A stretch of DNA of 63,486 nt, taken from the NCBI GenBank assembly GCA_017436525.1, contig JAFSCX010000006.1:1-63486 (forward strand). Direction: 5' to 3'. The position numbers were made by a program, and so were the translations under genes. The notes under the pieces were generated by a model that saw only the letters and a program-made list of their open reading frames with translations, was not told where the DNA came from and did not search any database. Position 1 is the first letter of the stretch, and each line of letters begins with the position of its first letter. This document shows positions 8,637 to 48,372 of the stretch, piece by piece. The DNA is from Clostridia bacterium. GTDB lineage: Bacteria > Bacillota > Clostridia > Oscillospirales > QAKW01.

Positions 8637-10514
8637 ATGAAAAAGATTTTTGGTTATTTCAAAAATCATCTTTTTTATGTGCAGTTATTTGCGTTGGCAA
8701 CGCTGATCTCTGCCTTTATTCCCGCTTTGAATCCTTTGATTGATTATGAAAGCGGTAAAAATCAAATGCTCTTTACCATTTTTGCGGATTTGGGGAACCT
8801 GGAGCGATATTTTGAGAGTATTTTAAGCTCCTTCAGCTTTTTTGGTGATATCTTATATGTTACCATGCTCTTTTTCTATGTTGGCTGGATTTGCTATCTT
8901 TGCGGTTTGATTTTGATTTGGTCGAAATCGGTAGGCGGTAAACGCTCTATCTTTATCGGTTCTTTGATTTTTATGGTAGTCTATCTTGCCGAGTTTTCGG
9001 TCTACTATAGTATCAATATTGAACTTTTGCATAATAGCGATGAATTAATCAATAGTGCTTCTGCTGTATGGACTCATATTCCTTTAGGGGTTTATTATCA
9101 TTTTGCGCTGGCTTTAGGCGTCTTTATCTTTTCTCTTTTGGCAAGTGAGATTGATTTCAGAGCAGTATGGTATGGCCTGCGATTGAATTGGATCCATCGG
9201 TTTGATGGCGGTGTCCATCCCACTTCCCATAAGAATACGCGCTCCATTCCTATTGAAAAGCTTCCTCCTCAAAAGGAAATGATCTATCCGCTGCTGCAGC
9301 ATATCGGTGCGATTTGTACTCCGCTTGTGAAGGTGGGGGACTATGTAAGGATGGGGCAGAAGATCGCAGATTCTGAATCTGCAGTATCGGTGCCGGTTCA
9401 TTCCACCGTATCGGGAACGGTAGTGAAAATCTGCGATTGGGATCATCCTACCGGCAATCGTATTCCGGCAATTATTGTGGAAAATGATTTTGAGGATAAT
9501 CGTGCTGAATGCTTCCAAGAGGGATCGGCCGATTATGAGGCGAAAACGCCTGATGAACTGATTGAAATTATCCGCGAAGCAGGAATCGTCGGGATGGGCG
9601 GTGCCGCCTTTCCTACCCATATTAAGCTTGCTTCGGCCGTTGGTAAAGTTGATACTGTCATTATCAATGCGGCGGAATGTGAGCCTTATCTTTCCAGCGA
9701 TCATCGCGAAATCTTGGAAAATATTGATGATTTGATGAACGGCTTGCGGCTTGTCCGATATATTATTGGCGCCCAAAGAATGTTTGTGGGAATCGAGAAT
9801 AATAAATCGGATGCCATTGCCTTGCTGCATAAGCGGCTGGCGAAAAGCCGCATTCGGCTTGTGATTTTGAAGACTAAATATCCTCAGGGCGGGGAAAAGC
9901 AGCTGATTCGCGCAGTAACAGGCCGCGTGGTACCTTCCGGTAAGCTGCCTGCCGATGTGGGCTGCTTAGTGCTGAATGTGGATACGGTTGTGGCAATTTA
10001 TCGCGCAGTAGTTGCCGGTGAGCCCTTGATGCGCCGAATTATCACGGTGGCCGGCCACGGCGTAGAAAGAGTAGGAAATGTAAGCGCTCGTATCGGCACC
10101 CCGTTTTCTGCAGTTTTAGATCATTTTGGCTATCTGCCTACTACGAAAAAACTGATTATGGGCGGTCCTATGATGGGAATTGCGCAATATTCCTTGGATG
10201 CGCCTGTCATTAAGAGCACTTCCGGTTTGCTTTGCTTTACCAAAGAGCAGCTTACGATGGATCGTGATGTGAGCTGTATTCGTTGCGGAAGCTGCGTTTC
10301 TGCCTGCCCCATGCGGCTGGTTCCCAGCTATATAGCGCAGTATGTGAAATCTGAGAATTTTGAAAAGGTAAATGAGCTCCATGCCGGAGATTGCATTGAG
10401 TGCGGATGCTGCTCCTTTACCTGCCCTGCTAAGATTCCGCTGATTCAGTACATTCGGATCGGTAAACAAAAGGTTCAAGAGATGAACCGTCAAACGGGAG
10501 GAAAACGCTCATGA
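8637..10514 (+). CDS. rnfC: Rnf complex subunit C with extra N-terminal multi-pass membrane domain
   Basis: FDGGVHP, AGIVGMGGAAFPTHIK, NAAECEPY, KYPQGGEKQL, GGPMMG, two CxxCxxCxxxCP motifs; first ~185 aa hydrophobic. Confidence 0.92.
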   Translation: MKKIFGYFKNHLFYVQLFALATLISAFIPALNPLIDYESGKNQMLFTIFADLGNLERYFESILSSFSFFGDILYVTMLFFYVGWICYLCGLILIWSKSVGGKRSIFIGSLIFMVVYLAEFSVYYSINIELLHNSDELINSASAVWTHIPLGVYYHFALALGVFIFSLLASEIDFRAVWYGLRLNWIHRFDGGVHPTSHKNTRSIPIEKLPPQKEMIYPLLQHIGAICTPLVKVGDYVRMGQKIADSESAVSVPVHSTVSGTVVKICDWDHPTGNRIPAIIVENDFEDNRAECFQEGSADYEAKTPDELIEIIREAGIVGMGGAAFPTHIKLASAVGKVDTVIINAAECEPYLSSDHREILENIDDLMNGLRLVRYIIGAQRMFVGIENNKSDAIALLHKRLAKSRIRLVILKTKYPQGGEKQLIRAVTGRVVPSGKLPADVGCLVLNVDTVVAIYRAVVAGEPLMRRIITVAGHGVERVGNVSARIGTPFSAVLDHFGYLPTTKKLIMGGPMMGIAQYSLDAPVIKSTSGLLCFTKEQLTMDRDVSCIRCGSCVSACPMRLVPSYIAQYVKSENFEKVNELHAGDCIECGCCSFTCPAKIPLIQYIRIGKQKVQEMNRQTGGKRS

Positions 10515-13305: not shown

Positions 13306-14106
13306 ATGTGGATCGACATCTTAAAAGCATTTCTTGCCTTAGGGATTTTGGGGCTGATTTTTGGCGGCGCTTTGAGCATTGCGGGTAATATCTTTTTTGT
13401 GAAAGAAGATTCTCGAAAAGAAGAGATTATGAAAATTCTACCCGGTGCAAACTGCGGTGGTTGCGGCTATGCCGGATGTGCCGGGTATGCGGATGCAATT
13501 ATTGCAGGGCAGGCAGCTTCCAATCTTTGCGCGGCAGCGAAAAAAGATGGCGCAGATGCCATTGCCGAGATCATGGGAGCAGATCGTGTAGAATTTATTC
13601 CTATGGTTGCTCATATCCGTTGCCACGGCACCAATGATTTTGCCAATAAGAAATATATCTATTACGGCATGAATGATTGTGTGGCGGCCAATCGATTGTT
13701 GGGCGGCTATATGACTTGCCAATATGGATGCTTAGGCTTTGGTAATTGCTTAAAAAAATGCCCGTTGGGCGCGATATCTATTGAAAACGGCGTCGCTGTG
13801 GTGGATCGTAATCTTTGCATCGGCTGCGGTGCTTGCTTGGAGGCTTGCCCTAAAGGGGTAATCGAGCTTTTGCCTAAAGATAGTAAAATCATGGTAAATT
13901 GCTCCAGCAAAGATAAAGGCCCGCGAACGCGCGAAGCCTGCAATACCGGATGTATCGGATGCAAGATCTGCCAAAAGAATTGTCCGGAGGGTGCAATTCG
14001 GGTGGAAGGAAATGTTTCTATTATTGATTATGAAAAATGCATTGGATGCGGAATCTGCGCTGAAAAGTGCCCCCGCAAAATTATTGATATTACAATATCT
14101 GAATAA
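13306..14106 (+). CDS. rnfB: Rnf complex subunit B (polyferredoxin)
   Basis: LPGANCGGCGYAGC plus several CxxCxxCxxxCP motifs. Confidence 0.95.
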   Translation: MWIDILKAFLALGILGLIFGGALSIAGNIFFVKEDSRKEEIMKILPGANCGGCGYAGCAGYADAIIAGQAASNLCAAAKKDGADAIAEIMGADRVEFIPMVAHIRCHGTNDFANKKYIYYGMNDCVAANRLLGGYMTCQYGCLGFGNCLKKCPLGAISIENGVAVVDRNLCIGCGACLEACPKGVIELLPKDSKIMVNCSSKDKGPRTREACNTGCIGCKICQKNCPEGAIRVEGNVSIIDYEKCIGCGICAEKCPRKIIDITISE

Positions 14107-14140
14107 AAGAAGTCTCTGCAATTTGCAGAGACTTCTTTTA
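14105..14140. terminator. Bidirectional terminator between rnfB and ldh
   Basis: AAAAGAAGTCTCTGCA-ATT-TGCAGAGACTTCTTTT between convergent stops. Confidence 0.8.
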
Positions 14141-15067
14141 TTATAGCATGGATTTTAGATGGTCGGCGGCATTGACCAAATGACGCTGTTCCTCCTCGTT
14201 GAGATTAAAATCCAAAATTTGTTCTACGCCGTTTTTCCCGAGTATGGCGGGAAGGCTCATATAGATTCCATGAAGATCATAATGACCATCTACCAATACA
14301 GAAAGGGGCAGGACAGAATGCTGATCCTTTACAATACATTCCACAATTCGCCCTACCGCTTTTGCAATGCCATAATAAGTGGCGCCCTTTCCCTCGATAA
14401 TTCGATAAGCACTGTTTACCACCTGCTCGGTAATATCTGATTTCATGGCATCAAAATGCAGATTCTCTCGCAGTTTGCAAAAATCATCCAAATCAATTCC
14501 CGAAATATTTGCGCTGCTCCATACCGCAAATTCTTCATCCCCATGTTCACCGATAATAAAGGCATGGACATTGCGGATATCCACAGAGAGATGCTCGCCT
14601 AATAAATATTTTAAGCGCGCCGTATCCAATACGGTCCCGCTGCCGATAACCCGCTCTGCAGGAAAGCCTGAAGCAGTATAGACCATCTGGGTTAATACAT
14701 CTACAGGATTAGAAACCACAATCAAGATGCAATCTTTATTATAAGGGAGCAGCTGCTCAACGATGCTATTGATAATGACGCGATTGCGATCTAAGAGTTG
14801 CGGACGGGTCTCTCCCGGTTGTTGATTGGCACCTGCAGCGATGATAATGATTCCGCAATCGGAAAGGTCCTTATAATCGCCTGCATAAATTTGCATCGGT
14901 TCCGAATAGGCAAGGCCATGGTTTAGGTCCATCGCCTCACCTATCGCCTTATCTTGATTGATATCAATCAAGACCATATCTGAGAAAAGCTGCCTTCCTA
15001 AAAGATCAAAGGCAATGGAAGAGCCTACATATCCGCAGCCGATAATGCCGATTTTTTTAAGATTCAT
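14141..15067 (-). CDS. ldh: L-lactate dehydrogenase
   Basis: GCGYVG Rossmann motif, AGANQQPGETR loop, VSNPVD, GSGTVLDTAR, GEHGD, KGATYYG. Confidence 0.9.
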   Translation of the reverse strand: MNLKKIGIIGCGYVGSSIAFDLLGRQLFSDMVLIDINQDKAIGEAMDLNHGLAYSEPMQIYAGDYKDLSDCGIIIIAAGANQQPGETRPQLLDRNRVIINSIVEQLLPYNKDCILIVVSNPVDVLTQMVYTASGFPAERVIGSGTVLDTARLKYLLGEHLSVDIRNVHAFIIGEHGDEEFAVWSSANISGIDLDDFCKLRENLHFDAMKSDITEQVVNSAYRIIEGKGATYYGIAKAVGRIVECIVKDQHSVLPLSVLVDGHYDLHGIYMSLPAILGKNGVEQILDFNLNEEEQRHLVNAADHLKSML

Positions 15068-15079
15068 GAGTCTCTCCCA

Positions 15080-16351
15080 TCATAGAAAGGCGGCGAGGCC
15101 CGGATAATAGCTGTGGATCCCCACAATGGATTCAATTCCGAGCAGTCGGTTATACTTTGTAATACGCTCGCTTCTTGAAAGAGCACCGGTTTTGATCTGC
15201 CCTGCATTGACAGCAACTGCAAGATCTGCGATAAAGGGATCTGCTGTTTCTCCGCTGCGATGAGAGATAATGGTTTTATAACCATTATTTTTAGCCATTC
15301 TGATGGTTTGAAGGGTTTCACTTAAGGTCCCGATTTGATTGAGCTTGATCAGGATGGCGTTGCCGCTTTTTTTAGCGATTCCCTTTTGAAGGCGATCACT
15401 GTTGGTGGCGAAAAGATCATCGCCAACAATTTGTATGCCTGTGCGTTTGGAAATTTCGGAAAAGCCCTCAAAATCATCATCGCTTAAGGGATCTTCCAAA
15501 GAGATGATGGGGTATTTTTGGACCATATCTTCAAAATAGCGGATCAATTCATCTTGCGAAAAGGTCTTTCCCGATTTTGGCTGGCGATATCCTTCGGCGG
15601 TTTTCCATTCCGAAGCGGCGGCATCCAAAGCGATTGCAATATCATGCTCCGGCTCCAAGCCCGCTCTTTCTATTGCCCGCAGAAGGAGATGAAGCGCCTG
15701 CTCATCACTCTCGAGGTTTGGCGAAAATCCACCCTCATCTCCAACGGCGGTATTGAGCCCTGATTCCTGAAGAATATGCTTGAGGCTATGGTAGACATTG
15801 GCGCTCATTTCCATCGCCTTGCTGAAAGAAGGTGCCCCGATGGGCACAATCATAAATTCCTGAATCTCAAGATTATTGTTGGCATGAGCACCGCCATTCA
15901 AGATATTCAGCATCGGCACCGGCATTGTCATGGCAGCAGCTCCGCCCAGATACCGATATAAGGGAAGGCCGCAGGCTGCTGCGGCAGTTCTTGCAACGGC
16001 TAAAGAGACTGAAAGAATGGCGTTGGCGCCTAAATGTTCTTTATTGGGCGTGTTGTCTAATTGAATCATGGTATGGTCGATGGCGGTTTGATCAAAGACA
16101 TCAAAGCCTTCCAACCCATCGTTAATAATTGTATTTACATTAGCGATTGCCTTGAATACACTCTTTCCGCCGTAGATATTGGCTTCATCTCGCAGCTCTA
16201 CTGCTTCATATTGACCGGTAGAGGCGCCGCTTGGTACGGCCGCCGAGGCGGTTACTCCGTTTTCCAGCAATACTTGGGTTTCGATGGTGGGATTGCCGCG
16301 TGAATCAAAAATCTGGCGTGCAAAAATTTGCTTGATTTTGGTTTGCTTCAT
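15080..16351 (-). CDS. eno: Enolase
   Basis: DSRGNPT, VPSGASTG, VGDEGG, QIVGDDL, LIKLNQIG, SHRSGET, QIKTG all intact; start MKQTK after AAGGAGG. Confidence 0.95.
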   Translation of the reverse strand: MKQTKIKQIFARQIFDSRGNPTIETQVLLENGVTASAAVPSGASTGQYEAVELRDEANIYGGKSVFKAIANVNTIINDGLEGFDVFDQTAIDHTMIQLDNTPNKEHLGANAILSVSLAVARTAAAACGLPLYRYLGGAAAMTMPVPMLNILNGGAHANNNLEIQEFMIVPIGAPSFSKAMEMSANVYHSLKHILQESGLNTAVGDEGGFSPNLESDEQALHLLLRAIERAGLEPEHDIAIALDAAASEWKTAEGYRQPKSGKTFSQDELIRYFEDMVQKYPIISLEDPLSDDDFEGFSEISKRTGIQIVGDDLFATNSDRLQKGIAKKSGNAILIKLNQIGTLSETLQTIRMAKNNGYKTIISHRSGETADPFIADLAVAVNAGQIKTGALSRSERITKYNRLLGIESIVGIHSYYPGLAAFL

Positions 16352-16377
16352 GGATATTCCTCCTTTTTGATTGATGA

Positions 16378-16407
16378 TAGTATGCACCAAACGGAAATAA
16401 ATCATTC
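16378..16407 (-). promoter_or_regulatory. Putative sigmaG (late forespore) promoter of eno-ldh
   Basis: GAATG (16407-16403)-18 nt-CATACTA (16384-16378) matches the Bacillus sigmaG consensus GHATR-N17/18-CATAHTA. Confidence 0.6.
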
Positions 16408-16412
16408 CTTTT

Positions 16413-16442
16413 GTTCTATTCGAGAAGGATTGCAAATAAAAT
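16413..16442 (+). promoter_or_regulatory. Putative sigmaE promoter of spoIIIA
   Basis: GTTCTATT-14 nt-AATAAAAT, a partial match to the sigmaE consensus; spoIIIA is sigmaE-dependent in studied sporeformers. Confidence 0.4.
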
Positions 16443-16467
16443 AGAAGCAAAGGGAGGGACAACTATC

Positions 16468-17409
16468 ATGAAAAAGAAGGGTAGTAAAAAAGGCTTGGAG
16501 GCGATCTTTCCTTATTTGAAAGAGGAGTGGAAAGTGATTTTGAAAAATCAGCCGCAAGAATTGCTCAAGAACGCCACTGAATTGCGTTTTCGATTGGGAA
16601 AAGGATGCTCCATCAGTTGCGGAGAAGGAAATTATATAGTGGAAGGGATCAAAATCTCATTTCAAGATATGGAATACCTCCTTGAAAAGGTCTGCCAAGG
16701 TGCAGCCTTTCAATTTGAAAAGCAAATGGAAAATGGATATATTCCGCTGCCGGAAGGGCATCGAGTGGGAATTTGCGGCAGCTTTGTAGAGAATGAGCAG
16801 GGAAAGATTAGAATATCCGATCTTTCTTCCGTGAACTTTCGCATCTGCCGCGATGTGAAAGGAATCGCAGAGCAGCTATTGCCAAAGCTTTTGTGCGAAG
16901 GAAGATTTTGCTCTACCTTGATTGTATCTGAGCCTTGCGGCGGTAAAACAACCTTGCTTACCGATTTGGTCAGAGTTCTTTCACTGAAAGGAATTCGCTC
17001 TGCAGTAGTTGATGAGCGAGGGGAGATCGCGGCGGTTTATAAAGGAATGGCGCAGAAGGATATTGGAGAACTTTCCGATGTATTGGATGGTTATCCGAAA
17101 CCCTATGGAATGATGGTTGCCCTTCGAACACTCTCTCCGCAGGTATTGGTATGCGATGAGATCGGCTCGGCCGAAGAGACCGAAAGAATGCTGGAGGCAA
17201 TGAATGCCGGTGTTCCTATTTTGGCAAGTGCTCATGCAAGGGATGAGGAGGAGCTCTTTAATCGCCCTCAGATCAAGCGTCTAATCGATGCGGGCGCGAT
17301 CTCAAAGGTCGTGCTGCTCAAGGGTGCAAAAGCACCCGGCAAGGTAAAGAAGGTACTGACGGTGAATCAATATGATGATGAAGATTATTGGTGCAGCGCT
17401 GATTGTTAG
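16468..17409 (+). CDS. spoIIIAA: Stage III sporulation protein AA (ATPase)
   Basis: GYIPLPEGHRVGICG, PCGGKTTLL, VVDERGEIA, LRTLSPQVLVCDEIG. Confidence 0.93.
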   Translation: MKKKGSKKGLEAIFPYLKEEWKVILKNQPQELLKNATELRFRLGKGCSISCGEGNYIVEGIKISFQDMEYLLEKVCQGAAFQFEKQMENGYIPLPEGHRVGICGSFVENEQGKIRISDLSSVNFRICRDVKGIAEQLLPKLLCEGRFCSTLIVSEPCGGKTTLLTDLVRVLSLKGIRSAVVDERGEIAAVYKGMAQKDIGELSDVLDGYPKPYGMMVALRTLSPQVLVCDEIGSAEETERMLEAMNAGVPILASAHARDEEELFNRPQIKRLIDAGAISKVVLLKGAKAPGKVKKVLTVNQYDDEDYWCSADC

Positions 17410-17809
17410 CGGCGGTTATTTATTGGGCCGGATCAGAATTCATCAATGGAATATTCGATTAAAAAACCTCAAAAGAGTTTGCGAATTATTTGAATGTTAC
17501 TTGGGCGAACTATCGGAATACAGAACTTCCGTGGAAGAATTCTTTTCAAATCAAGGGAACTTTGGGAAGGAACTTTTGGGCGATGATTCCATCATGGGGC
17601 TTACTGCCGAAGATCTTCAACGAGCAAGAGGGTGCATGGAGCGGTTGAAGCGGGAAAATTATCAAGAATCTCTTCGTATTGTGCGAAAATATATTGATCA
17701 GCTAAAAGCATTAATTAAAGCATTGGAGGAAGAAGCAGGCTCATCCGGAAAAGCGTTGCCGTTGGTAACAGGCGTGATCGGATTTTTGATTGCCGTGTTT
17801 TTATTCTGA
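17372..17809 (+). CDS. spoIIIAB: Stage III sporulation protein AB (short, divergent)
   Basis: MKIIGAALIVSGGYLLG N-terminal TM and C-terminal TM; operon position. Confidence 0.7.
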   Translation: MMMKIIGAALIVSGGYLLGRIRIHQWNIRLKNLKRVCELFECYLGELSEYRTSVEEFFSNQGNFGKELLGDDSIMGLTAEDLQRARGCMERLKRENYQESLRIVRKYIDQLKALIKALEEEAGSSGKALPLVTGVIGFLIAVFLF

Positions 17810-17810
17810 T

Positions 17811-18005
17811 ATGGAAGTGGAATTGATTTTCAAAATTGCTGCTGTTGGAATCGTGGTGGCGGTGGTGAATATGGTCTTATCAAAGCTTGGGCGGGATGAA
17901 TATTCCACCCTCACAACTTTGGCGGGGATTATTATTGTATTATTGGTATTGCTGGGAGAACTTGGCACCCTCTTTTCCACCATACGCACGGTGTTTTCAT
18001 TATGA
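17811..18005 (+). CDS. spoIIIAC: Stage III sporulation protein AC
   Basis: LIFKIAAVGIVVAVVNMVLSKLGRDE...TTLAG. Confidence 0.92.
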   Translation: MEVELIFKIAAVGIVVAVVNMVLSKLGRDEYSTLTTLAGIIIVLLVLLGELGTLFSTIRTVFSL

Positions 18006-18388
18006 ATATCTATCAGTTGCTGATTGCAATTCTTGCTTGCTTGATGGTTTATCTTTTATTGAGGAGCGTAAACGAGCGGTTTGCGGTCTTTGCCTCTTTG
18101 GCAGGCGCGTTATTCGTTTTGTTTTACGTCTGCACACGATTGAGCTCAATTTTTACATTTATCACTCATCTCAGCGAAAGTGCAGGAGTCAATAATGAGT
18201 ATTTTGAGGTTGTACTGAAAGGGCTTGCAATTTGCTATTTGGGTGAATTTACGGTGGGTGCTTGCAAGGATTGTGGGCAGAGTGGATGGGGCGATAAGGT
18301 AGAGATTGCTTGCAGATGCTCTCTTTTGATATTGGCAATTCCGCTGTTTGAAGATTTTTTGGCGGTGATTACAGGATTGTTGGAATGA
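18002..18388 (+). CDS. spoIIIAD: Stage III sporulation protein AD
   Basis: VLKGLAICYLGEF...CKDCGQ...KVE...LAIP. Confidence 0.88.
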   Translation: MNIYQLLIAILACLMVYLLLRSVNERFAVFASLAGALFVLFYVCTRLSSIFTFITHLSESAGVNNEYFEVVLKGLAICYLGEFTVGACKDCGQSGWGDKVEIACRCSLLILAIPLFEDFLAVITGLLE

Positions 18389-19470
18389 AAAGACTGTTGA
18401 TCTTAATATGTATATTATTATTGCTCGCCCCAAGAGCATTTGGAGAAGAGGATGGCTATAATGATGATTTTCGATATTCGGTTACGCCGGAGGATTCCCT
18501 TTTATCAGAGAGCACCGACATAGAAGACCCCAATTCTATTAAAGAAGATCTTGAATTTCAAAAAATATTTGCCTATTTTATGCGGCTTATAAAAAGCGGG
18601 TTAAAGGCTTCATTGAAAAGCTTGATCACAGGAATTGCAATGGTATTGCTCTCGGTGCTTGTAAATCGCTGCAGCGGCAATATTCAAAATCAAAATCTTC
18701 AGATGATGTTCTCCTTTATTGTATCGATTTCGATTGCCTTGATGTGTGAAGGAACATTGCGCGGCTGTGCTGTGGCATTGCAGGAGACGATCGAGAATAT
18801 GGGTGTCTTTACTGCCGCTTGTATTCCGTCCTTTTCCGTGGTAATGATAGCGGCAGGGGAGGGCGCAAGTGCTGCAGTTTTTTCGGCGGTAATGGTTTTG
18901 GTGGGAGAATTGGGTACTTTGGTTTCCGGCGGACTTTTGATGCCGCTTACCGATGTATATCTTGCGATCGGTATTTGCTCGGCAGTCAGTGATGAATATA
19001 ATTTTTCCACCATTGCCAAGAATATTCGCAGGTTCATCATATGGTCTATTTCGCTTTTGACTATCGTTTTTCGCTTGATTTTGAAATTACAAGCAAGTGC
19101 GGCCTCAGCAGGAGATCAGCTCACGAAAAAATACATTAAATCAGCGATTGGAACTTTGATTCCATTGGTGGGCGGTACCCTTCAGCAAGGGATTGATGGG
19201 CTCTTTACCATGGCGGCTGGAGTTAAAACCTCTTTTGCCATTGCGGGCGTTTTAATGGTATTATCTCTGATGCTTCCGTCGTTAATTTCAATTGGGATTC
19301 ATGGAATTGTATGGAGTCTTTGCAGGTGGGTGGCAGAATTTTTGAACGACAGCACCATCCGATCTATTGCAGATGTCCTTGCAAATAGTTTTTATTTGAT
19401 GCTTGCTTTGGGCGGAAGTGTGGCTCTGATGGGATTGTTTTCGTTCTTCGGAATTATGGTTGCGGTGTAG
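18385..19470 (+). CDS. spoIIIAE: Stage III sporulation protein AE
   Basis: Multi-TM, IPLVGG motif, operon position. Confidence 0.82.
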   Translation: MKRLLILICILLLLAPRAFGEEDGYNDDFRYSVTPEDSLLSESTDIEDPNSIKEDLEFQKIFAYFMRLIKSGLKASLKSLITGIAMVLLSVLVNRCSGNIQNQNLQMMFSFIVSISIALMCEGTLRGCAVALQETIENMGVFTAACIPSFSVVMIAAGEGASAAVFSAVMVLVGELGTLVSGGLLMPLTDVYLAIGICSAVSDEYNFSTIAKNIRRFIIWSISLLTIVFRLILKLQASAASAGDQLTKKYIKSAIGTLIPLVGGTLQQGIDGLFTMAAGVKTSFAIAGVLMVLSLMLPSLISIGIHGIVWSLCRWVAEFLNDSTIRSIADVLANSFYLMLALGGSVALMGLFSFFGIMVAV

Positions 19471-19474
19471 AAAA

Positions 19475-19921
19475 ATGGAAGGAATCAGAAGTGCGGGCCT
19501 TATCATCTGCATTTTGATGGTTTTAATGGCCTATCTAAAGCAGGCAATTCCAAAAGGTAAAAGCCTTTATCTCATGAAAGCAATTATATCGATCTTTATT
19601 CTTCTGAGTATTATCAGCAGCGTGAGAGGAATTAGTTGGAAAGGGCTTGAGGGCCTGATAAACGGCTCTTATTCCCAAAGCAATGAGGTATGGGAGAATG
19701 CGGCCGATTTAATGGAAAAGGGCCTTCTGGATGAATTTCAGCGGTATTTAGATGATGAAAACATTGATGGGCAGGTATTGGAGGTGCAGGTAAAGGGCAG
19801 CTTGGATGATTTTAGGATTGATTTTGTAAAAGTAGCAGGTAAGGAATCCTCGACCGCTAAAAAGCTTTTGGCAGGTCGTTACCAGATCGGTTTGAATTTA
19901 ATAGAGGCAGTAGATGAATGA
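19475..19921 (+). CDS. spoIIIAF: Stage III sporulation protein AF (divergent)
   Basis: Two N-terminal TMs flanking IPKGK; position between AE and AG. Confidence 0.65.
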   Translation: MEGIRSAGLIICILMVLMAYLKQAIPKGKSLYLMKAIISIFILLSIISSVRGISWKGLEGLINGSYSQSNEVWENAADLMEKGLLDEFQRYLDDENIDGQVLEVQVKGSLDDFRIDFVKVAGKESSTAKKLLAGRYQIGLNLIEAVDE

Positions 19922-20375
19922 ATGGATAGAAAAATATAAAAGTGAACTCAAAAAATATTGGTTGATCCCCGTAATGATCTTTGCCGGAATTTTGCTGATG
20001 ATGCGTCCGTCGGCAGATCAAAATCAAAAGGTGGATTATAATGCAGAGCAGCAGGATTATATCCGCCGCATGGAGGCTCAAATTCAGGAGATGCTTCTTG
20101 GTATCGAAGGCGCCGGAGAGTGCAAGGTATCGGTATCTCTTGCTTCTGGCGGCAGAAAAGAATATGTGCGGGAAGCGGGGAGTGTATTGGTGATCACCGA
20201 TAAGAACGGAAATGAAACTCCTGTGTTGGCGCGGGAAGGATTGCCTGAAATTGCAGGCATTACCATCGCAAGCGCAGGCGCCGGAAGTGTGTCGATACGA
20301 AATCGAATTATTGAGGCGGTAAGTACGCTTACGGATGTCGGCACGAATAAAATTTGCGTTGTGATGGTAAGTTAG
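19914..20375 (+). CDS. spoIIIAG: Stage III sporulation protein AG
   Basis: EMLLGIEGAGECKV, PEIAGITIASAGA, IIEAVSTL...NKICV. Confidence 0.85.
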   Translation: MNEWIEKYKSELKKYWLIPVMIFAGILLMMRPSADQNQKVDYNAEQQDYIRRMEAQIQEMLLGIEGAGECKVSVSLASGGRKEYVREAGSVLVITDKNGNETPVLAREGLPEIAGITIASAGAGSVSIRNRIIEAVSTLTDVGTNKICVVMVS

Positions 20376-20387
20376 GGTAAATGAATT

Positions 20388-20948
20388 ATGAAAATCAATA
20401 AAAAACAAATTGTATTTTTGACATTGGCGTTGGTCGTATGCATCGCTGTATATCTTAATTGGCGATTCTTGGATCATGTTGATATCAGCGACGGAAGCAG
20501 TGTGGTAGAGACCGGTCAGCAGAATCAGGAGGAAGAGGAAAAGAAGCTGGGTGAGGCTGAATTGGTGGAGACGGTAGCAAAAGACGTGCAGGAATATTTT
20601 GAGGAGTGCAGGCTGAATAAGCAGCAGACCCGAGATGAGGCATTGGAGCTTTTGAAGGTTGTTGCTACCAGCGGTGAATCAGCAGCCGATACAAAGGAAA
20701 AAGCAAATGCCGATATGGTGAATTTGGCTAATATTACGGAAGTAGAGGGAACCATTGAGGGCTTGATTAAGGCGAAGGGCTTTAAGGATTGTATGGTTTA
20801 CATAACTGATGAATCGGTTAATGTTGTGGTTGCCACCGAAGGACTCAGCACCGAGCAGGCGGCTCAGATCAATGAAATTGTAATCAGCGAATCCGGCAAG
20901 GTCGCTTCTGCAGTTAAAATTGTGGAGATCAAGACAGAAAAGGGCTGA
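20388..20948 (+). CDS. spoIIIAH: Stage III sporulation protein AH
   Basis: N-terminal TM (AVYLNW), YFEECRL, EGLIKAKGFKDCMV. Confidence 0.9.
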   Translation: MKINKKQIVFLTLALVVCIAVYLNWRFLDHVDISDGSSVVETGQQNQEEEEKKLGEAELVETVAKDVQEYFEECRLNKQQTRDEALELLKVVATSGESAADTKEKANADMVNLANITEVEGTIEGLIKAKGFKDCMVYITDESVNVVVATEGLSTEQAAQINEIVISESGKVASAVKIVEIKTEKG

Positions 20949-31502: not shown

Positions 31503-32075
31503 TTATTCAGGTTTGGTCTCCAGCTTTAAGGGGAAATCACCCAATTTATTTACCTTGAATCCATTCTTTTTATACTCTTCATAATCGAAGGCTTCCAGCT
31601 CATCAATGGCAAGCTTATGGAATTCATAGAAATTATGCCACCATTCGTAGCCGCTTCCCAGCTCGGCGTTGAGATAAGCATCAGCGATATCGCAGCCCAT
31701 CTGAGGAGCCACATAGAAAGCACCCATGGCCAGAACGTTTACACCATTACCGGTAATGGCTCTCAAAGCAGCAGGAACGCTCTCGACAACCCCTGCATGG
31801 ACATGGGGGCATTTGCTTGCGGCGATATGGATTCCCATACCGGTGCCGCAGAAGAGCAGGGCGCGCTCAAATTCGCCTTCGGAGACCATTGCGCCGGCTC
31901 TGAGGCCCACGCGATGGAACATGAGATCGGTATCATCGGGATCGGAATCGACCCGTACCCCCACATCGGTAACTTCCCAGCCCTTCGCCTTTAAGTGGGC
32001 CACAACAGCCTCTTTTAAGGGGAAGCCGGCAAAATCTGCGCCTACTAAGATCTTTTTGTCTTTTACGGTTTTCAT
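31503..32075 (-). CDS. RpiB/LacAB-family sugar isomerase, divergent
   Basis: GADFAGFPLK, FCGTGMG, NVLAMGA. Confidence 0.82.
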   Translation of the reverse strand: MKTVKDKKILVGADFAGFPLKEAVVAHLKAKGWEVTDVGVRVDSDPDDTDLMFHRVGLRAGAMVSEGEFERALLFCGTGMGIHIAASKCPHVHAGVVESVPAALRAITGNGVNVLAMGAFYVAPQMGCDIADAYLNAELGSGYEWWHNFYEFHKLAIDELEAFDYEEYKKNGFKVNKLGDFPLKLETKPE

Positions 32076-34222
32076 TGGTTTTTCTCCTTTATTATAAATT
32101 TATGGGTTCCTTTTGCAAGGGGTTTGCCTTGATAGATGGCGGGGATCCCTTCGCCGATGGTGATGGAAAGGGTAATTTCTCCGCCCTTACGCTCCCAGCG
32201 AAGGGCCACATGATCCAGATGCCCTTCCGCAAAGCTCAGCTCGCGGATAAAGAAGGGATCGATGGTGATCTGCTCAAAGGTATCGGTAAGGCCCAAGATG
32301 GTCTTGATCATCCAGCTCATGAAATCGGAATACATATGATGGTTTTTAGAATGTTTATAATCCCAATATTCATAGAGGGTGGTAGCTCCATCCTGCAGCC
32401 AGCCGATATAGGAGGGCTTGCCTTTGGCGGTAAGAATCCGGTAAGCGCTCTCTTGCATGCCGCAAAGATTCAATGCCCGATAAAGGAAGGGCAGGCCCAC
32501 CATTCCGCAATCGTGATGGTATCCGTTTTCCTCCACCACCTCTGCCAACTGCTCTTTAAGAGGATTCATCTCCTCGTAAAGAGCCAGATCCAGCATCATG
32601 GCCACAGAGGTCTGGCGGTGGATTTTGCAGCGCCCATGCTCATCCAGATATTTGCTCTTAAAGCGCGCAACCAAAAAGGCGAGTTTTTCTTCGGCTTCTT
32701 TGGTCTTATCTCCTGCCAGCTGCAAGGCTTTCAGATAGATGCGCCAGAATTTGATCTGCAACGCTCCGTTGATAAAAGGAGCATTGACCTTGGGGGTGAA
32801 AAGGGCAGCCCAATCATCAAGGCCGTAGCGGATCTCTCCGTCCTCTTCCTTGGAATCCAAAAAGGCAAGATGCCGCTTAAAATAGGGGATGCTTCGGATT
32901 AAGGGCTCTTCTTTGCCGGTGTGAAGCCAAATCCGATAAGGAATTTCATAAAGGATTCCTTCCGAGACGGGGCCGTTGCCCCACTCATAGCCCCAGCCGG
33001 AGGTGGGGACAATGCCGGGCAACATTCCATCTTCCCTCATGGCATCATAAATATCCTGCAGCCATTTTTCCAGCAGCGGAGCGGCATCAAAATCTGCCAG
33101 AAACTGCTCGCAGGAGGATTGCGCATCGTTGCACCAGCCCAGCTTTTCGCGGGTGGGGCAATCGGTAGGCATATAGAAAAGATTGGAATAGGTGGCATTG
33201 ACGCCGCATTGGAAAAGGCGGTTGAGGGAATCTTCCGAGCAATGGAAGGAGGTGCGCTGCTTGATATCCTGATGGACAAAGACAGCCGTTGCCTCGCAGG
33301 GCGCTCTCAAGCCCTCAATTTCCACATAGCGGAAGCCATGATAGGTGAATTTGGGCTGCCAGATGAATTCTTTGCCGCAGCAGATGAATTCATCTTTTTG
33401 GACACGATGCTGCCGAGAGGGGTACATACTATCGAATTCTTTTCTATAGACAAAGACATTCCCCTCTTTATCGCAATTTTCAGTATAGTGGAGAATGATT
33501 TTATCTCCTGCGGGTTGATTGATCTTAATGCGCAAATAACCCGACATATTTTGGCTAAAATCATATGTATAGCGGTACTCTCCTGTTTTTTTGATAGAAA
33601 TTGGCTCAAATTCCTCACATTTACGAATGGGCTGGCAGAGGCAGGGGCGAAGAACGCCTGCAGGGGGCGCCTCATCAAGGATCGCGCTTTGCCAGCTGCT
33701 ATCATCGAAACCGAGATCATTCCAGCCCTCTTGATAAAGGCGGGAATCATAATGCTCGCCCAACCGAAGCTGATTATAGGTAACGGGTGAATTAAGGGAA
33801 TATTTGAATTGAGCATCACTTTCTAAAATGACATCCCCATCCGCCTCTAAGGAGAGGATCAGCTTGGGATTATCCCGCCAAGGGGCAGTATCATAGTCCC
33901 ACGCGCTTTTGATATATTCATTATACCAGCCGTTGCCAAGCTCTGCGGCCAAGATATTCTCCCCCTCTTGAAGAAGAGGAGAGACATCATGGGAGGTATA
34001 CCATATCGTCTTGGTATAATCAGAGACCGGCGCTAAAAAGAGATCTTCTGTTACCTTTTTGCCGTTGATATAAAAATACCCATAGCCTAAAGCCGCCATA
34101 TGCAAGATGGCTTTTTGAGGCTTGCTCTTCAGGGTAAAGGTTCTTCTGAATAAGGGAGAAAGGCCGTTGCGATCCTTTAAGTAGGGGGTATCAGCCTTTA
34201 TATAATGGGCGGATTGAAGCAT
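32072..34222 (-). CDS. GH78-like alpha-L-rhamnosidase (no signal peptide)
   Basis: ELGNGWY, DFSQNMSG, PKFTYHGFRYVE, PTDCPTREKLGW, GATTLYEYW, SKNHHM. Confidence 0.85.
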   Translation of the reverse strand: MLQSAHYIKADTPYLKDRNGLSPLFRRTFTLKSKPQKAILHMAALGYGYFYINGKKVTEDLFLAPVSDYTKTIWYTSHDVSPLLQEGENILAAELGNGWYNEYIKSAWDYDTAPWRDNPKLILSLEADGDVILESDAQFKYSLNSPVTYNQLRLGEHYDSRLYQEGWNDLGFDDSSWQSAILDEAPPAGVLRPCLCQPIRKCEEFEPISIKKTGEYRYTYDFSQNMSGYLRIKINQPAGDKIILHYTENCDKEGNVFVYRKEFDSMYPSRQHRVQKDEFICCGKEFIWQPKFTYHGFRYVEIEGLRAPCEATAVFVHQDIKQRTSFHCSEDSLNRLFQCGVNATYSNLFYMPTDCPTREKLGWCNDAQSSCEQFLADFDAAPLLEKWLQDIYDAMREDGMLPGIVPTSGWGYEWGNGPVSEGILYEIPYRIWLHTGKEEPLIRSIPYFKRHLAFLDSKEEDGEIRYGLDDWAALFTPKVNAPFINGALQIKFWRIYLKALQLAGDKTKEAEEKLAFLVARFKSKYLDEHGRCKIHRQTSVAMMLDLALYEEMNPLKEQLAEVVEENGYHHDCGMVGLPFLYRALNLCGMQESAYRILTAKGKPSYIGWLQDGATTLYEYWDYKHSKNHHMYSDFMSWMIKTILGLTDTFEQITIDPFFIRELSFAEGHLDHVALRWERKGGEITLSITIGEGIPAIYQGKPLAKGTHKFIIKEKNQ

Positions 34223-34391
34223 ACTGCAAACTCCTCTTTAATTTATACTTATAATTATAATCTAAATGAATTATATACGAATTACAATGATGAAATCCGC
34301 TCAACATTTGAGAAAAAACGATAATTTCTTGACTTGTATTTTATTTATGATACACTTTATATATAGTTTGGATTTTTTGGAGGATGGGCCG

Positions 34392-35225
34392 ATGGAGCGG
34401 ATTTTTCCCCCTTCGTTTTCTAATTTGGATTTGCAGATCCATATGGCCTCTTTTATCGGCGGAGACCGCTGGTGGGAGGATGCTTTGGGCAATGATTGGT
34501 GGAGCAGGGATTGGAAGCCGAGCTTTAATGTGCTCTATTTCATTAAAAACGGCGGTTTCTCCTTTACGATTGACGGGCATCAATATCGGGCTCAGGCGGG
34601 CGATATGGTGCTGATTCCCGCCTTTTCTCAATTGCATTTCTCCATGGAGGGGGAAGAGGTGCTGGATAAATATTATCTTCATTTCCGCCTTCTTCTCGGC
34701 AAGGGAATGCTTGCCGATCAATATGATTTTGAGCGAGTGGTTCATCTGGAGCAAAAGGAGCTTGCAGAGGCTATTTTTCAGCGATTGATTGATAGCAAGG
34801 ATCTTTTGGGCTTTTCTGAAAAAGGTGCCCTTTTGGAGCTTCTGGGCCTCTTTTTTGAAAAAAGTGCGCCCACGCCCAAAAATCCCGATGGGCTGGGGAA
34901 GGCCATCGACCATATCCATGGCCATCTCGGCGAGAATCTCTCAATCGGGAAATTGGCCGGCCTTTGCGGCTATAGCAAGGATCATTTTACCCGCAAATTC
35001 AAAGAGGCTTATGGGCGCACGCCCTGCCAATATATCACCGATCTGAAGCTGACCCGTGCCAAAGAGCTGCTGCGCGCAACCGATAAGACGGTTGCGGCTG
35101 TTGCAGAGGAACTTGGCTTTGGGGATGCGGGATATTTTACCAACTTTTTTTGCCAGAAAACGGGGCTTGCCCCCAGCTATTATCGCAAGGAGGAGCGAAA
35201 AAATGAAAATTATGGAAAAAATTAA
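34392..35225 (+). CDS. AraC-family regulator
   Basis: Cupin N-terminus; HFTRKFK..YG..P, AKELL, VAEELGFGDAGYF; start after GGAGG. Confidence 0.9.
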   Translation: MERIFPPSFSNLDLQIHMASFIGGDRWWEDALGNDWWSRDWKPSFNVLYFIKNGGFSFTIDGHQYRAQAGDMVLIPAFSQLHFSMEGEEVLDKYYLHFRLLLGKGMLADQYDFERVVHLEQKELAEAIFQRLIDSKDLLGFSEKGALLELLGLFFEKSAPTPKNPDGLGKAIDHIHGHLGENLSIGKLAGLCGYSKDHFTRKFKEAYGRTPCQYITDLKLTRAKELLRATDKTVAAVAEELGFGDAGYFTNFFCQKTGLAPSYYRKEERKNENYGKN

Positions 35226-35928
35226 GGCGAAGGCCTTGGACAATGCAGGCTGTGAGGGGATCACCTTAGGCTTTATCGGCGATAGTGTAACCCAGGGCTG
35301 TTTTGAAATTTATAATAAAGCCGATGGCAATGTGGAGACCATCTTTGATAAGACCAACGCTTATCATAAGCATCTGGCAGATTTGCTGGCCGTCATTTTC
35401 CCTACTGTCCCCGTAAATATTATCAATGCAGGGATCAGCGGGGTGTGTGCACCCCACGGCCTTGCCAGATTAGAGCGGGATATTATTCGCCATCAGCCGG
35501 ATCTTTGCGTGGTCTGCTTTGGTCTGAACGATTGCAGCAAAGGCATGAGCGGCATCGGGGAATATACCGATGCGCTGGGCAAGATTTTTGATCAGCTGAA
35601 AGAGGCGGGAATTGAGATTATTTTCATGACGCCTAATATGATGTGTACGCAGGTGAGCTGCCATATCAAAGAAGAAAGCCATATTGAGATCGCGAAAGCA
35701 ACGGCGAAAAGGCAAAATGAAGGTGTTTTGGATGCCTATATGGATGCTGCCAAGGCCGTTGCCGGGGAAAAGGGTGTTGCAATCTGCGATTGCTATGCCA
35801 AGTGGAAGCGTCTTTATGAATGCGGCGCTGATATTACCGAGCTGCTTTCCAATAAAATCAACCATCCTACCAGAGAGATGAATAAGCTTTTTGCGGTCTC
35901 CCTTCTGGAAACCATGATGGGAGAATAA
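35203..35928 (+). CDS. SGNH/GDSL hydrolase (probable carbohydrate esterase)
   Basis: GDSVTQG, NAGISG, FGLND, INHP. Confidence 0.85.
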   Translation: MKIMEKIKAKALDNAGCEGITLGFIGDSVTQGCFEIYNKADGNVETIFDKTNAYHKHLADLLAVIFPTVPVNIINAGISGVCAPHGLARLERDIIRHQPDLCVVCFGLNDCSKGMSGIGEYTDALGKIFDQLKEAGIEIIFMTPNMMCTQVSCHIKEESHIEIAKATAKRQNEGVLDAYMDAAKAVAGEKGVAICDCYAKWKRLYECGADITELLSNKINHPTREMNKLFAVSLLETMMGE

Positions 35929-35931
35929 AGA

Positions 35932-36573
35932 ATGCCGACGAAATTGATCATTGTGCGCCATGGCCAGAGCCAGGCCAATGTGGAAAAGATTTATGCCGCT
36001 CATCTGAATACGCCTCTCTCTTCTTTGGGGCGGGAGCAGGCAGCGCGGTTGGGAGAATATCTGAAGGATACGCCCATTGATGCCATCTATTCCAGCGATC
36101 TGCAACGGGCTCACGACACCGCTGCACCTACAGCGAAAAATCACAACCTGCCCATTATCGACAGTAAGGCCCTTCGAGAGATCGACGGCGGAGAATGGGA
36201 GGGCAAGAATTTTGAGGATCTGCTCCGAGAATATCCCGAAGAATACGGCCTATGGCTTTCGGATATCGGCAAAAGCCGCACCGTAGGCGGAGAGAGTGTG
36301 GCGCAAGTTTCGGAGCGGATGATGAGTGAGCTTTCAAGAATCGCCGCCCTTCATCCGGAGCAGACGGTTTTGATCGCCACCCATGCCCTTGCGCTTCGCA
36401 CAGTCTGCACCATCGCTTCGGGGCTGCCGATAGAGCGAATGAAAGAAATTCCCTTTGTAAGCAACGCTTCAATCAGTACCTTCCTTTATGAAGACGGAAA
36501 ACTCAAAGTTCTCACCATGGATGAAACGGCCCATCTGGAGGGCATCGAGAGCAGTTTGCCAAAGAATGTATAG
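35932..36573 (+). CDS. Histidine phosphatase family protein
   Basis: VRHGQS, SSDLQRA, LREIDGGEWEG, GGES, ATH. Confidence 0.88.
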   Translation: MPTKLIIVRHGQSQANVEKIYAAHLNTPLSSLGREQAARLGEYLKDTPIDAIYSSDLQRAHDTAAPTAKNHNLPIIDSKALREIDGGEWEGKNFEDLLREYPEEYGLWLSDIGKSRTVGGESVAQVSERMMSELSRIAALHPEQTVLIATHALALRTVCTIASGLPIERMKEIPFVSNASISTFLYEDGKLKVLTMDETAHLEGIESSLPKNV

Positions 36574-36626
36574 GATACCGTTTATTAAAAAAATGCAGGA
36601 TCACGAAGATCCTGCATTTTTTATCT

Positions 36627-37655
36627 TTATCTTTGAATTCGGCCGGAGCCGTCGCCGCCGGCGAGTTTTTCCACTTCGGCAACCGAAACCATGTTATAGT
36701 CGCCTTCAATGGAATGCTTAAGTGCAGAAGCCGCTACTGCGAATTCAACAGCGCTTTGGGTATCCTTGCCGGAGAGCAGGCTATAGATCAGCCCGCCGCC
36801 GAAGGAATCGCCGCCGCCTACCCGATCGATGATATGCAACTCATATTTTTTGGAGAAGCAATACTCATTGGTCTTTACATTATAGAGCATGGCGCTCCAG
36901 CCGTTATCGAAAGCAGAGTGGGATTCTCTCAAGGTGATGGCTACCATCTCGAAGCCGAATTGATCGGCCAGCTGCTTGGCAACGGATTTATAGCCCTCAT
37001 GATTCAAGGAGCCTGCATAAATATCAGTGGCCTCGGCCTCAATGCCGAAGACATCCTTGGCATCCTCTTCATTGGAGATGCAGACATCTACATATTGGCA
37101 AAGCTCGGTCATGGCGGCTCTTGCCTGCTCACGAGTCCAGAGCTTGCCGCGATAGTTCAGATCGCAGGAGATTTTGATCCCCCGCTTTTTCGCCTCTTTG
37201 CAGGCCTCTTTGCAGGTTTCTACCAGATTCTCGCCCAGAGCGGGGGTGATGCCGGTGAAATGGAACCAATCGGCGCCTTCAAAGATTTTTTCCCAATCGA
37301 AATCGGAAGGGCTCGATTCCTGAATGGCAGAATGGGCGCGGTCGTAGATGCAGACAGAGCCTCTTTGAGAAGCACCCTTCTCATTGAAATAGATTCCTAC
37401 ACGATTCCCCCCGCGGACAATCTTTGAGGTATCTACCCCGTAACGGCGCAGGCTGTTGACAGCAGATTGGCCGATGGCATGAGCGGGGAGCTTGGTAACA
37501 AATGCGGCCTCCATGCCGTAATTAGCAAGGGAGACTGCCACATTGGCCTCGCCGCCGCCGAAGGTGAATTCCACATGGTCGCATTGCACGAATCTTTCAT
37601 AATTATAGGGTTGCAGGCGAAGCATCAGCTCGCCGAAGGTTACGATTTTAGCCAT
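36627..37655 (-). CDS. kdgK: 2-keto-3-deoxygluconate kinase (PfkB)
   Basis: FGELMLRL, GGGEANVA, DLNYRGKLW, DRVGGGDSF; hexuronate operon context. Confidence 0.88.
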   Translation of the reverse strand: MAKIVTFGELMLRLQPYNYERFVQCDHVEFTFGGGEANVAVSLANYGMEAAFVTKLPAHAIGQSAVNSLRRYGVDTSKIVRGGNRVGIYFNEKGASQRGSVCIYDRAHSAIQESSPSDFDWEKIFEGADWFHFTGITPALGENLVETCKEACKEAKKRGIKISCDLNYRGKLWTREQARAAMTELCQYVDVCISNEEDAKDVFGIEAEATDIYAGSLNHEGYKSVAKQLADQFGFEMVAITLRESHSAFDNGWSAMLYNVKTNEYCFSKKYELHIIDRVGGGDSFGGGLIYSLLSGKDTQSAVEFAVAASALKHSIEGDYNMVSVAEVEKLAGGDGSGRIQR

Positions 37656-37673
37656 CTTTTTTCTCCTTATTAT

Positions 37674-38303: not shown

Positions 38304-38307
38304 TTTC

Positions 38308-40238: not shown

Positions 40239-40256
40239 GGTTCATCCTCCGTATTA

Positions 40257-41648: not shown

Positions 41649-41792
41649 TTTTCCACTCCTTTTCTGAATTACGATCATTATTATAATACAGAATTTTCTT
41701 CAAATCTATTGTATATTATACCCTGTTTGCTTGCAAATTTAAGCATAATAAGAAAGCCCGAGGCAGTCTTTGCCAATCAACTGCTGCGGGCT

Positions 41793-43587: not shown

Positions 43588-43678
43588 GGAAAACCTCTTG
43601 CAAGTTTTGGGAAAATGGATTATAATGAATCTGTCTGTAATATGAAATAACAGAATTTTTTTGGAAGGAGAATCAATC

Positions 43679-44371: not shown

Positions 44372-44388
44372 GGAAGGAGGAATATTCA

Positions 44389-47964: not shown

Positions 47965-47990
47965 GATGATCCTCCTTTTAAGAGATGATA

Positions 47991-48257: not shown

Positions 48258-48303
48258 TGGCAAAGGCGCTCCTTTCAAAATATTGAACCGATTTCGATAT
48301 AAA

Positions 48304-48372
48304 CGGCTTATTTAAGCTGAAAATATATATTTTCAGCTTAAATAAGCCGAGGGAGCATCACTGCTCCCTCGG
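48304..48372. repeat. Perfect 46-bp palindrome plus adjacent GC-rich hairpin
   Basis: CGGCTTATTTAAGCTGAAAATAT|ATATTTTCAGCTTAAATAAGCCG (48304-48349); CCGAGGGAGCA-TCAC-TGCTCCCTCGG (48347-48372). Confidence 0.9.

Follow-up and report, generated by a model that had tools for sequence, protein, structure and literature searches.

A predicted forespore-class promoter precedes the only enolase gene of a Clostridia bacterium of the order Oscillospirales

The glycolytic operon of Bacillus subtilis, cggR-gapA-pgk-tpiA-pgm-eno, is read by sigma-A, and we know of no forespore promoter for eno in Bacillus. Promoters read by sigma-F and sigma-G, the sigma factors active in the forespore, drive genes such as ssp, spoVA, sigG, spoIVB, and spoVT in B. 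subtilis and Clostridioides difficile. The consensus sequences of the two factors are alike according to excerpts of Saujet 2013 (PMC3789822), which name a G upstream of the −10 element for sigma-F and an A downstream of it for sigma-G and confirm the sigma-F/G dependence of sigG and spoVT. The main text of that paper contains no occurrence of enolase, eno, or ldh, and a literature search found no report of a sigma-F/G-dependent enolase. As to the metabolism of spores, part of a study on Bacillus (PMC9864370) describes how stored 3-phosphoglycerate (3PGA) yields the first ATP of germination via phosphoglycerate mutase and enolase. For the B. subtilis forespore, the simulation SporeME2, in the portion of PMC11695771 considered here, predicts that glycolysis runs forward including Eno, with NADH balanced via the lactate dehydrogenase (LDH) LctE if the SpoIIQ–SpoIIIA channel is shut. 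Here, we analyze a stretch of 63,486 nucleotides from a Clostridia bacterium, a small spore-former of the gut (Oscillospirales, QAKW01; assembly GCA_017436525.1, contig JAFSCX010000006.1, positions 1 to 63,486), the whole of which is called the window in the following. It carries the genes of an enolase (eno) and an LDH (ldh) back-to-back with the spoIIIA operon, and the only recognizable promoter of eno appears to be of the sigma-F/G class.

This promoter is located in the spacer between eno and spoIIIAA. The motif GAATG-N18-CATACTA agrees with the features of sigma-F/G promoters, namely a −35 element GnATR, a spacer of 17–18 nt, a −10 element CATnnTA/nAnAMTA, and a suitable distance to the start codon (here 26 nt to the ATG), and a sigma-70 scan of the 116-bp spacer identified no site pointing at eno. 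With the known sigma-F/G promoters it shares GnATR and (C)AnA(A/C)TA at a spacing of 17–18 nt, followed by a strong ribosome-binding site after a short leader; the sigma-F type has a G upstream of the −10 element. In contrast to these promoters, the gene driven here encodes a housekeeping glycolytic enzyme, the only enolase of the cell, and the −35 element is mostly degenerate within the genus. The first-pass annotation of the window had already pointed to the motif, the length of the divergent spacer, the lack of a sigma-A consensus, and the adjacency of eno and ldh with a gap of 12 nt, and both the coordinates (Table 1) and the scan agree with it in all of these points.

The same annotation had assigned the promoter to the forespore class, which is supported by other promoters of the same genome that share this architecture. 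These are the promoters of sigG (GCATA-N15-GGAAATAATA), spoVAC (GTATA-N18-GATACTA), spoVAD (GCATA-N17-AAAAATA), and the gene encoding a small acid-soluble spore protein (SASP; GTATT-N17-AAAAATA). The consensus of the SASP promoter in 28 genomes of the genus is TGAAT-N18-CAAAATA or CATACTA. The genome encodes the full set of sporulation sigma factors, comprising SigG (NF006071, 414.7 bits, cut-off 372), a SigF-like protein whose gene is preceded by open reading frames (ORFs) of the size of spoIIAA and spoIIAB, SigE, and SigK, and it contains one SASP gene and spoVA genes. SigF and SigG are its only sigma factors of the SigB/F/G family. In the −10 element of eno, the invariant positions A2, A4, T6, and A7 and the upstream G are those named for sigma-F/G in the consulted excerpts of PMC3789822, and positions 1 and 3, which are important for sigma-A, are variable.

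The divergent arrangement of eno and spoIIIAA was found at all 24 loci of the genus (the locus of the window included) and at none in the two sister genera of the family, g18 and g19; it was also absent from six loci that belong to other families of the order. We regard the proximity to spoIIIA as incidental, a matter of gene order within this genus that plays no role in the mechanism, and the functional link between eno and the channel operon, which the first-pass annotation had considered, is not supported. Within the genus, the sequence [C/T]ATACTA precedes eno at 21 of the 24 loci and GGnnAnAMTA at 17, and the two-block pattern of −35 and −10 elements is present at six. GGn[C/T]ATACTA is the sole strongly conserved element on the eno side. 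A good −35 element was identified at six of the 24 loci, as GAATG only in the window and its nearest relative (L006), as GTATG at three loci, and as GTATA at one. Five loci lack the GG (L005, L006, L015, and L026) or have another −10 element (L023); all of these except L026 have a good GnATR, and three of the four start the −10 element with C. Judged by these sequences, the eno promoters of the genus look like two flavors, one G-like and one F-like. The pgk promoter, by comparison, reads TTG(A/C)AA-N17-TGnTAAAAT in 12 out of 12 genomes of the genus.

In both sister genera, eno is located elsewhere and without ldh. At all six g19 loci, the gene comes after a terminator, and the sequence ahead of it is TGTATA(A/T)TT-N-CAAAATA, that is, GTATA-N17-CAAAATA with the −10 element of the genus SASP promoters; at all three g18 loci, it is G(C/T/A)ATA-N17-AA(A/C)ACTA. 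Outside the family, the two-block pattern was detected at most 50 nt from eno at nine of 32 loci labelled as Bacillota. One of the nine belongs to the cultured species Massiliimalia timonensis, which has GAATA-N17-CATTCTA before eno, one enolase, and a SASP gene. None of 27 loci from other phyla and none of eight unlabelled loci showed the pattern near eno. Flanking genes served as a control: among 125 ORFs at the 32 Bacillota-labelled loci, seven carried the pattern, all of them eno, and at the g18 and g19 loci, eight of the nine ORFs with the pattern (32 ORFs in total) were eno. In a quick IQ-TREE phylogeny of the enolases, the promoter label was confined to the Clostridia half of the tree and required at least six changes. 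The sequences suggest that a promoter of the forespore class is conserved before the sole eno in each of the three genera that make up the family as well as in further Clostridia lineages. With respect to the conservation in relatives, which the first-pass annotation had proposed to check, the promoter class holds up across the three genera and beyond, whereas the exact motif does not, since 13 of 21 genus loci read TATACTA and the −35 element is mostly poor.

The enolase can be aligned over its full length with enolases of solved structure (best match 3uj2, E 2e-146). Its translation contains SGASTG, GDEGGF, DAAASE, LEDP, GDDL, KLNQIGT, SHRSGET, and QIKTG; these motifs, which line up with 3uj2, are taken to cover the catalytic and metal-binding residues, and the protein is predicted to be catalytically complete. 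The Ldh protein has the Gln in GANQQPGETR, which presumably marks it as an LDH, as well as DTAR and GEHGD, and malate dehydrogenase models scored below their cut-offs. Either enzyme is encoded once in the genome of the window, which is 99.16% complete (protein search and PF00113 for enolase, PF00056 for Ldh_1-type dehydrogenases). Among 27 genomes of the family that are at least 90% complete, 24 gave a single eno match, two carried a single gene divided between contigs, and the remaining one, G041, had an extra copy. Ten further genomes were reached via eno loci of other lineages, eight of them with the two-block pattern, and each contained one enolase; a SASP gene was present in all five of these genomes that were tested. 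A second match to Enolase_C was found neither in the genome of the window nor in 10 other promoter-related genomes tested. Because no second eno turned up in the genome or, apart from the extra copy of G041, in its relatives, this gene is the one housekeeping enolase of the organism and not a forespore-specific paralogue. The first-pass annotation had called eno-ldh a forespore-specific operon and had itself named a sole enolase as one half of the case against it; with no second eno or Ldh_1-type gene, this designation is not supported. The other half of that case, strong vegetative expression from a different promoter, was not seen.

The extra enolase gene of G041 lies alone on a contig of 1.9 kb (L110, G041:C11:1-1899). 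It has a codon adaptation index (CAI) of 0.465 with the codon weights of the window's genome and carries CATACTA 37 nt ahead of its start codon. It was considered as the missing vegetative copy of the genus and rejected, since the quick tree places it with Bacteroidota and other sequences, apart from the Clostridia group; the gene is probably a contamination or a recent transfer.

The association with ldh is looser. Of the 17 genus genomes with a completeness of at least 90%, 10 have an ldh orthologue behind eno; in g18, ldh is located elsewhere, and in g19, it was mostly not found with this query. The upstream regions of the g18 ldh genes contain no two-block motif, and ldh seems to be co-transcribed with the preceding gene. 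As part of a module with eno, which is how the first-pass annotation saw it, ldh is not supported.

Compared with the B. subtilis glycolytic operon, the enzymes are the same and pgk-tpiA-gpmI are clustered behind a canonical sigma-A promoter, but eno is detached, lacks a promoter of the sigma-A type, has poorly adapted codons, and changes faster in sequence than pgk. No eno adjoins the pgk-tpiA-gpmI genes (56256–59826), in line with the first-pass annotation, which had also judged by eye that eno and ldh lack the strong codon bias of pgk and tpiA. A self-consistent CAI was calculated for the 1387 genes of at least 100 amino acids; the reference set that emerged consisted of L7/L12, EF-Tu, EF-Ts, pyruvate phosphate dikinase (PPDK), pyruvate:ferredoxin oxidoreductase (PFOR), phosphoenolpyruvate carboxykinase (PEPCK), ribosomal proteins, and solute-binding proteins. 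On this scale, eno (CAI 0.390, rank 1068) and ldh (0.397, rank 1019) are found close to spoIIIAA (0.37, rank 1161). The genes of the surrounding metabolism are top-adapted, as seen for gap (0.825, which would be rank 1), PPDK (0.79, rank 2), PEPCK (0.77, rank 7), tpiA (0.700, rank 28), pgk (0.676, rank 44), and gpmI (0.624, rank 81); PFOR has a CAI of 0.78 (rank 4). The difference holds throughout the genus, where the codon weights of the window's genome gave 0.29–0.49 for eno (16 genomes) and 0.64–0.75 for pgk (12 genomes). The protein sequences diverge in the same manner. Within the genus, Eno is 76–84% identical and Pgk 86–95% (the near-identical genome G005, with 99.5–100% for both, was set aside), and toward g18 the values are 55–58% and 86–88%, respectively. 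The evolutionary rate of Eno is about that of SpoIIIAA. No pyruvate kinase was found in the genome, which makes phosphoenolpyruvate (PEP) a hub served by PPDK and PEPCK.

The reading we favor is that the sole housekeeping enolase would be boosted by sigma-F/G in the forespore and only weakly expressed in growing cells; judged on the sequences, we consider the chances of this being right or wrong to be about evenly balanced. A number of observations weigh against it. The main anomaly is metabolic: with a sole enolase, top-adapted neighboring enzymes, and no pyruvate kinase, growing cells should need a large enolase flux, which fits badly with a forespore promoter and a low CAI. Regarding the promoter itself, the first base of the −10 element is T at 13 of 21 genus loci and C at eight, and TATACT matches five of the six positions for sigma-A; the −35 element is degenerate at approximately 18 of the 24 loci (TAATG/TAATA or GnAA types). 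The related genomes are not independent samples. The strict pattern GHATR-N17/18-CATNHTA matched 32 times on both strands of the 1.75-Mb genome, mostly within ORFs, while approximately 30 matches genome-wide, or about one per 63-kb window, are expected under uniform base composition. A position weight matrix (PWM) built from 10 forespore promoters other than eno ranked the eno promoter of the window 33rd of 1507 with 10.5 bits, and the genus eno loci had a median of 6.35 bits, with six of 24 reaching at least 10 bits. The same PWM gave 6.6–15.2 bits for AT-rich pgk control regions, whose scores are inflated by a conserved block (ATGAATTTTC), and is hence not discriminating. The GG −10 box alone was only modestly enriched, with 22 matches upstream of genes and 11–14 in controls.

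The strict motif alone is not beyond chance; what raises the eno motif above chance is its position, together with a promoter class that is conserved in relatives. When the pattern was relaxed to G[ACT]ATN-N17/18-NANA[AC]TA, it matched 32 of 1507 upstream regions, compared with 19 on the reverse strand and 14–18 in shuffled sequences. The matches include sigG, spoVAC, spoVAD, SASP, SpoIVB, SpoVT, a polysaccharide deacetylase, DUF421/YetF, DUF378, a penicillin-binding protein, and eno, and the sporulation genes among them depend on sigma-F/G in model organisms. The relaxed pattern is a useful but noisy predictor, and about half of its matches are expected noise.

An alternative is an ordinary housekeeping promoter, at which sigma-A would read the −10 element TATACT or CATACT with the aid of an activator or an A-rich upstream element replacing the −35 box. 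The likeness to sigma-F/G promoters would then be incidental, because a sigma-A −10 element plus a following A also fits nAnAMTA. A sole enolase must be expressed during growth, TATACTA prevails in the genus, weak sigma-A readings (8–9 of 12 positions) are possible at the site in about 10 of 24 loci, the PWM fails to separate eno from the pgk controls, and the strict motif occurs at chance frequency. However, the critical first T is replaced by C or A at all nine sister-genus loci and at eight of 21 genus loci, and the A at the seventh position is almost invariant. Neither a TGn extension nor a TTGACA-like box exists at eno, while pgk has both in all 12 genomes of the same genus. Furthermore, the GnATA box at 17 nt is kept in g18, g19, and the other lineages, the pattern is specific for eno when compared with flanking genes, and the low CAI of eno argues against a strong housekeeping promoter. 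We regard this explanation as unlikely, although it has a substantial claim to be considered. A sigma-70-like site antisense in spoIIIAA (16660–16631, ATGAGA-18-TATAAT) was discarded as a further candidate because the relatives show only scattered and non-identical matches. The conserved box might alternatively serve another factor or condition that is not compartment-specific, such as stationary phase, stress, or a repressor or activator overlapping GGnYATACTA. That the genus conserves well only the 10-mer GGn[C/T]ATACTA would be in accordance with such a site, as would the short palindromes that adjoin the box in relatives such as L011 and L017. However, the genome has no sigma factors of the SigB/F/G family other than SigF and SigG, and its own sigG and spoVAC promoters have −10 elements that match the box. 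None of the consensus sequences of sigma-H, sigma-B (−35), sigma-E/K, Spo0A box, Rex, and CodY fits the eno promoter by eye across relatives. Such a factor seems decidedly improbable to us.

The opposite extreme is that eno-ldh would be strictly confined to the forespore and that growing cells would do without a canonical enolase, using an unrecognized analogue or a bypass. This would account for the lack of any promoter of the sigma-70 type in the 116 bp that are available, for the conserved forespore-class promoter, for a CAI of eno and ldh at the level of spoIIIAA (0.37–0.40) when all other genes of lower glycolysis rank in the top 6%, and for an Eno that evolves about as fast as SpoIIIAA. 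It is countered by the lack of a second Enolase_C match in this genome and the 10 others, by the fact that no bypass or analogue was identified, and by gpmI, which is highly adapted and in one operon with pgk-tpiA, so that 2-phosphoglycerate is made in quantity. To our knowledge, this compound has no other major fate. We think it very unlikely that the enzymes are restricted in this way. Extended to the family and several small-genome gut Clostridia lineages, the idea would be that canonical enolase is essentially forespore-only and forms, here with an LDH beside the channel operon, a hard-wired module from lower glycolysis to lactate like that predicted by the B. subtilis model, while vegetative cells, in which the remaining glycolytic steps look top-expressed, convert 2-phosphoglycerate to PEP by an enzyme not recognized as an enolase; this is a long shot.

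On the favored reading, a housekeeping enolase boosted by sigma-F/G in the forespore, we infer the following course. In growing cells, eno would be read weakly, perhaps by sigma-A on the same −10 element without a proper −35 element, which is conceivable because most relatives have TATACT at this position. Weak vegetative reading would fit the poor codon adaptation and fast sequence change of eno. During sporulation, the divergent spoIIIA operon would be transcribed in the mother cell from its sigma-E-type promoter, and eno, with or without ldh, would be read in the forespore by RNA polymerase with sigma-F and then sigma-G. The forespore and the spore would thereby be stocked with enolase and, in this species as in part of the genus, also with LDH. 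In late development or germination, the two enzymes could convert 2- or 3-phosphoglycerate to PEP, ATP (via PPDK), and lactate. One possible purpose is ATP from stored phosphoglycerate at germination: the use of 3PGA described in part of PMC9864370 would explain why a spore should be supplied with enolase, although the depot described there is that of Bacillus spores. Another is forespore glycolysis with lactate formation of the kind modelled in SporeME2. That scheme, as far as it is laid out in the cited portion of PMC11695771, would be well served by an eno-ldh unit with a promoter of the forespore type, but SporeME2 is a simulation of another organism with vegetatively inherited enzymes, and ldh accompanies eno in only 10 of the 17 genus genomes.

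Table 1. Features of the eno-ldh/spoIIIA locus and the pgk comparison locus in the window.
Feature	Position	Strand	Evidence or remark
Inverted repeat AAAAGAAGTCTCTGCA..TGCAGAGACTTCTTTT between convergent rnfB and ldh	14106-14139	.	read directly from the sequence
ldh, L-lactate dehydrogenase, 308 aa, second cistron after eno	14141-15067	-	TIGR01771 380.7 bits (cut-off 303.55)
eno-ldh gap, 12 nt, TGGGAGAGACTC	15068-15079	-	contains the ldh ribosome-binding site
eno, enolase, 423 aa	15080-16351	-	TIGR01060 615.4 bits (cut-off 300); PF00113 372.5 bits
Divergent eno/spoIIIAA spacer, 116 bp	16352-16467		spoIIIAA ATG at 16468
eno ribosome-binding site AAGGAGG	16359-16365	-	
eno −10 element CATACTA	16378-16384	-	ends 26 nt before the eno ATG
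eno −35 element GAATG	16403-16407	-	18 nt upstream of the −10 element
Sigma-E-like spoIIIAA promoter	16413-16442	+	GTTCTATT 16413-16420; CAAATAAAAT 16433-16442
spoIIIA operon, AA to AH in order	16468-20948	+	AA 16468-17409; AH 20388-20948; unassigned ORF 19460-19921 between AE and AG
pgk-tpiA-gpmI with canonical sigma-A promoter (comparison locus)	56184-59826	+	TTGAAA 56184-56189-N17-TGgTAAAAT, −10 hexamer 56207-56212

The genes of the spoIIIA operon were assigned by NCBIfam (AA, AC, AD, AE, and AG) and Pfam (AB and AH), with several scores below the equivalog cut-offs. The first-pass annotation had described the spoIIIAA promoter as a weaker sigma-E-like one, which is a fair description: most of the 24 genus loci have GTTCTATTT-N-CCATAAAAT (G(T/G)TCTA..N..CCATAAAAT), and the −10 element is degenerate in the genome of the window. 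On the other side, ldh converges with the rnfCDGEAB operon. The inverted repeat between them probably acts as a terminator in both directions, at which the eno-ldh transcript would end; a consensus scan did not list it. RnfC (8637–10514, +) is extended at its N-terminus by about 185 residues, its match to the RnfC models beginning at residue 187 of 625.

Between the divergent genes secA and pgk, upstream of the pgk sigma-A promoter, a block (A)ATGAATTTTC(A/G)GT(A/G)AA(A)TT.. is located at about 56103–56130 (+) and is found at 12 out of 12 genus loci (L113–L124); it may be a regulator site. Very long open frames run antisense to pgk-tpiA (729 amino acids, 56157–58346, −) and to gap (715 amino acids, contig C57:41974–44121, +). 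They have no family matches and seem to arise merely from the strong codon bias on the sense strand, yet a longest-ORF gene caller takes them over the real pgk-tpiA and gap genes. A tandem palindromic unit, GATATCATGATATCATGATATC, is located outside the window, upstream of the SASP gene (contig C51, about 10370–10400), and occurs again on another contig at C58:19749–19778 as well as at the SASP locus of the nearest relative (L057).

Two highly adapted genes at 43661–45387 (+), with CAI ranks 29 and 8 of 1387, encode a NifU-like protein (weak Pfam match) and a protein of the GGGtGRT family (PF14057, 645 bits), which appears in the literature mainly in gut and rumen metaproteomes. The pair was considered as a stand-in for enolase and dropped, as the literature on the family includes Bacteroides and other gut taxa, which presumably have a normal enolase. 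Elsewhere in the window, TrmD (241–1374, −; residues 1–223) apparently continues at its C-terminus into a fused acetyltransferase domain that is RimI-like (residues 289–370; TIGR01575, 36 bits, below the cut-off). A microcompartment-type cluster at 47317–49992 (−) encodes a PduL-like phosphate propanoyltransferase, a shell protein of the EutM type, and a class II aldolase similar to fuculose-phosphate aldolase (CAI rank 32), which suggests the use of fucose or rhamnose. Genes for a rhamnosidase and for hexuronate utilization (uxaC, uxuA, uxuB-like, kdgK, and eda) are found at 32072–41678.

The promoter type, the enolase, and the LDH are each known; what is new is their combination, in which an only enolase is detached from the glycolytic cluster and has a recurring promoter of the putative forespore class together with the signature of low expression. 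A sole enolase that looks weakly expressed and evolves fast amid glycolysis genes that look top-expressed, throughout a genus, calls for an explanation, and the cultured relative M. timonensis is suited to testing both the promoter and the asymmetry in expression. How the forespore and the germinating spore are supplied with energy is an open question that has to do with nurturing by the mother cell through the SpoIIQ–SpoIIIA channel, with the 3PGA depot, and with the recently modelled glycolysis and lactate formation of the forespore. A forespore-class promoter on the sole eno, if true, would be the first genetic sign known to us that transcription in one compartment serves to equip the spore for a step of lower glycolysis.

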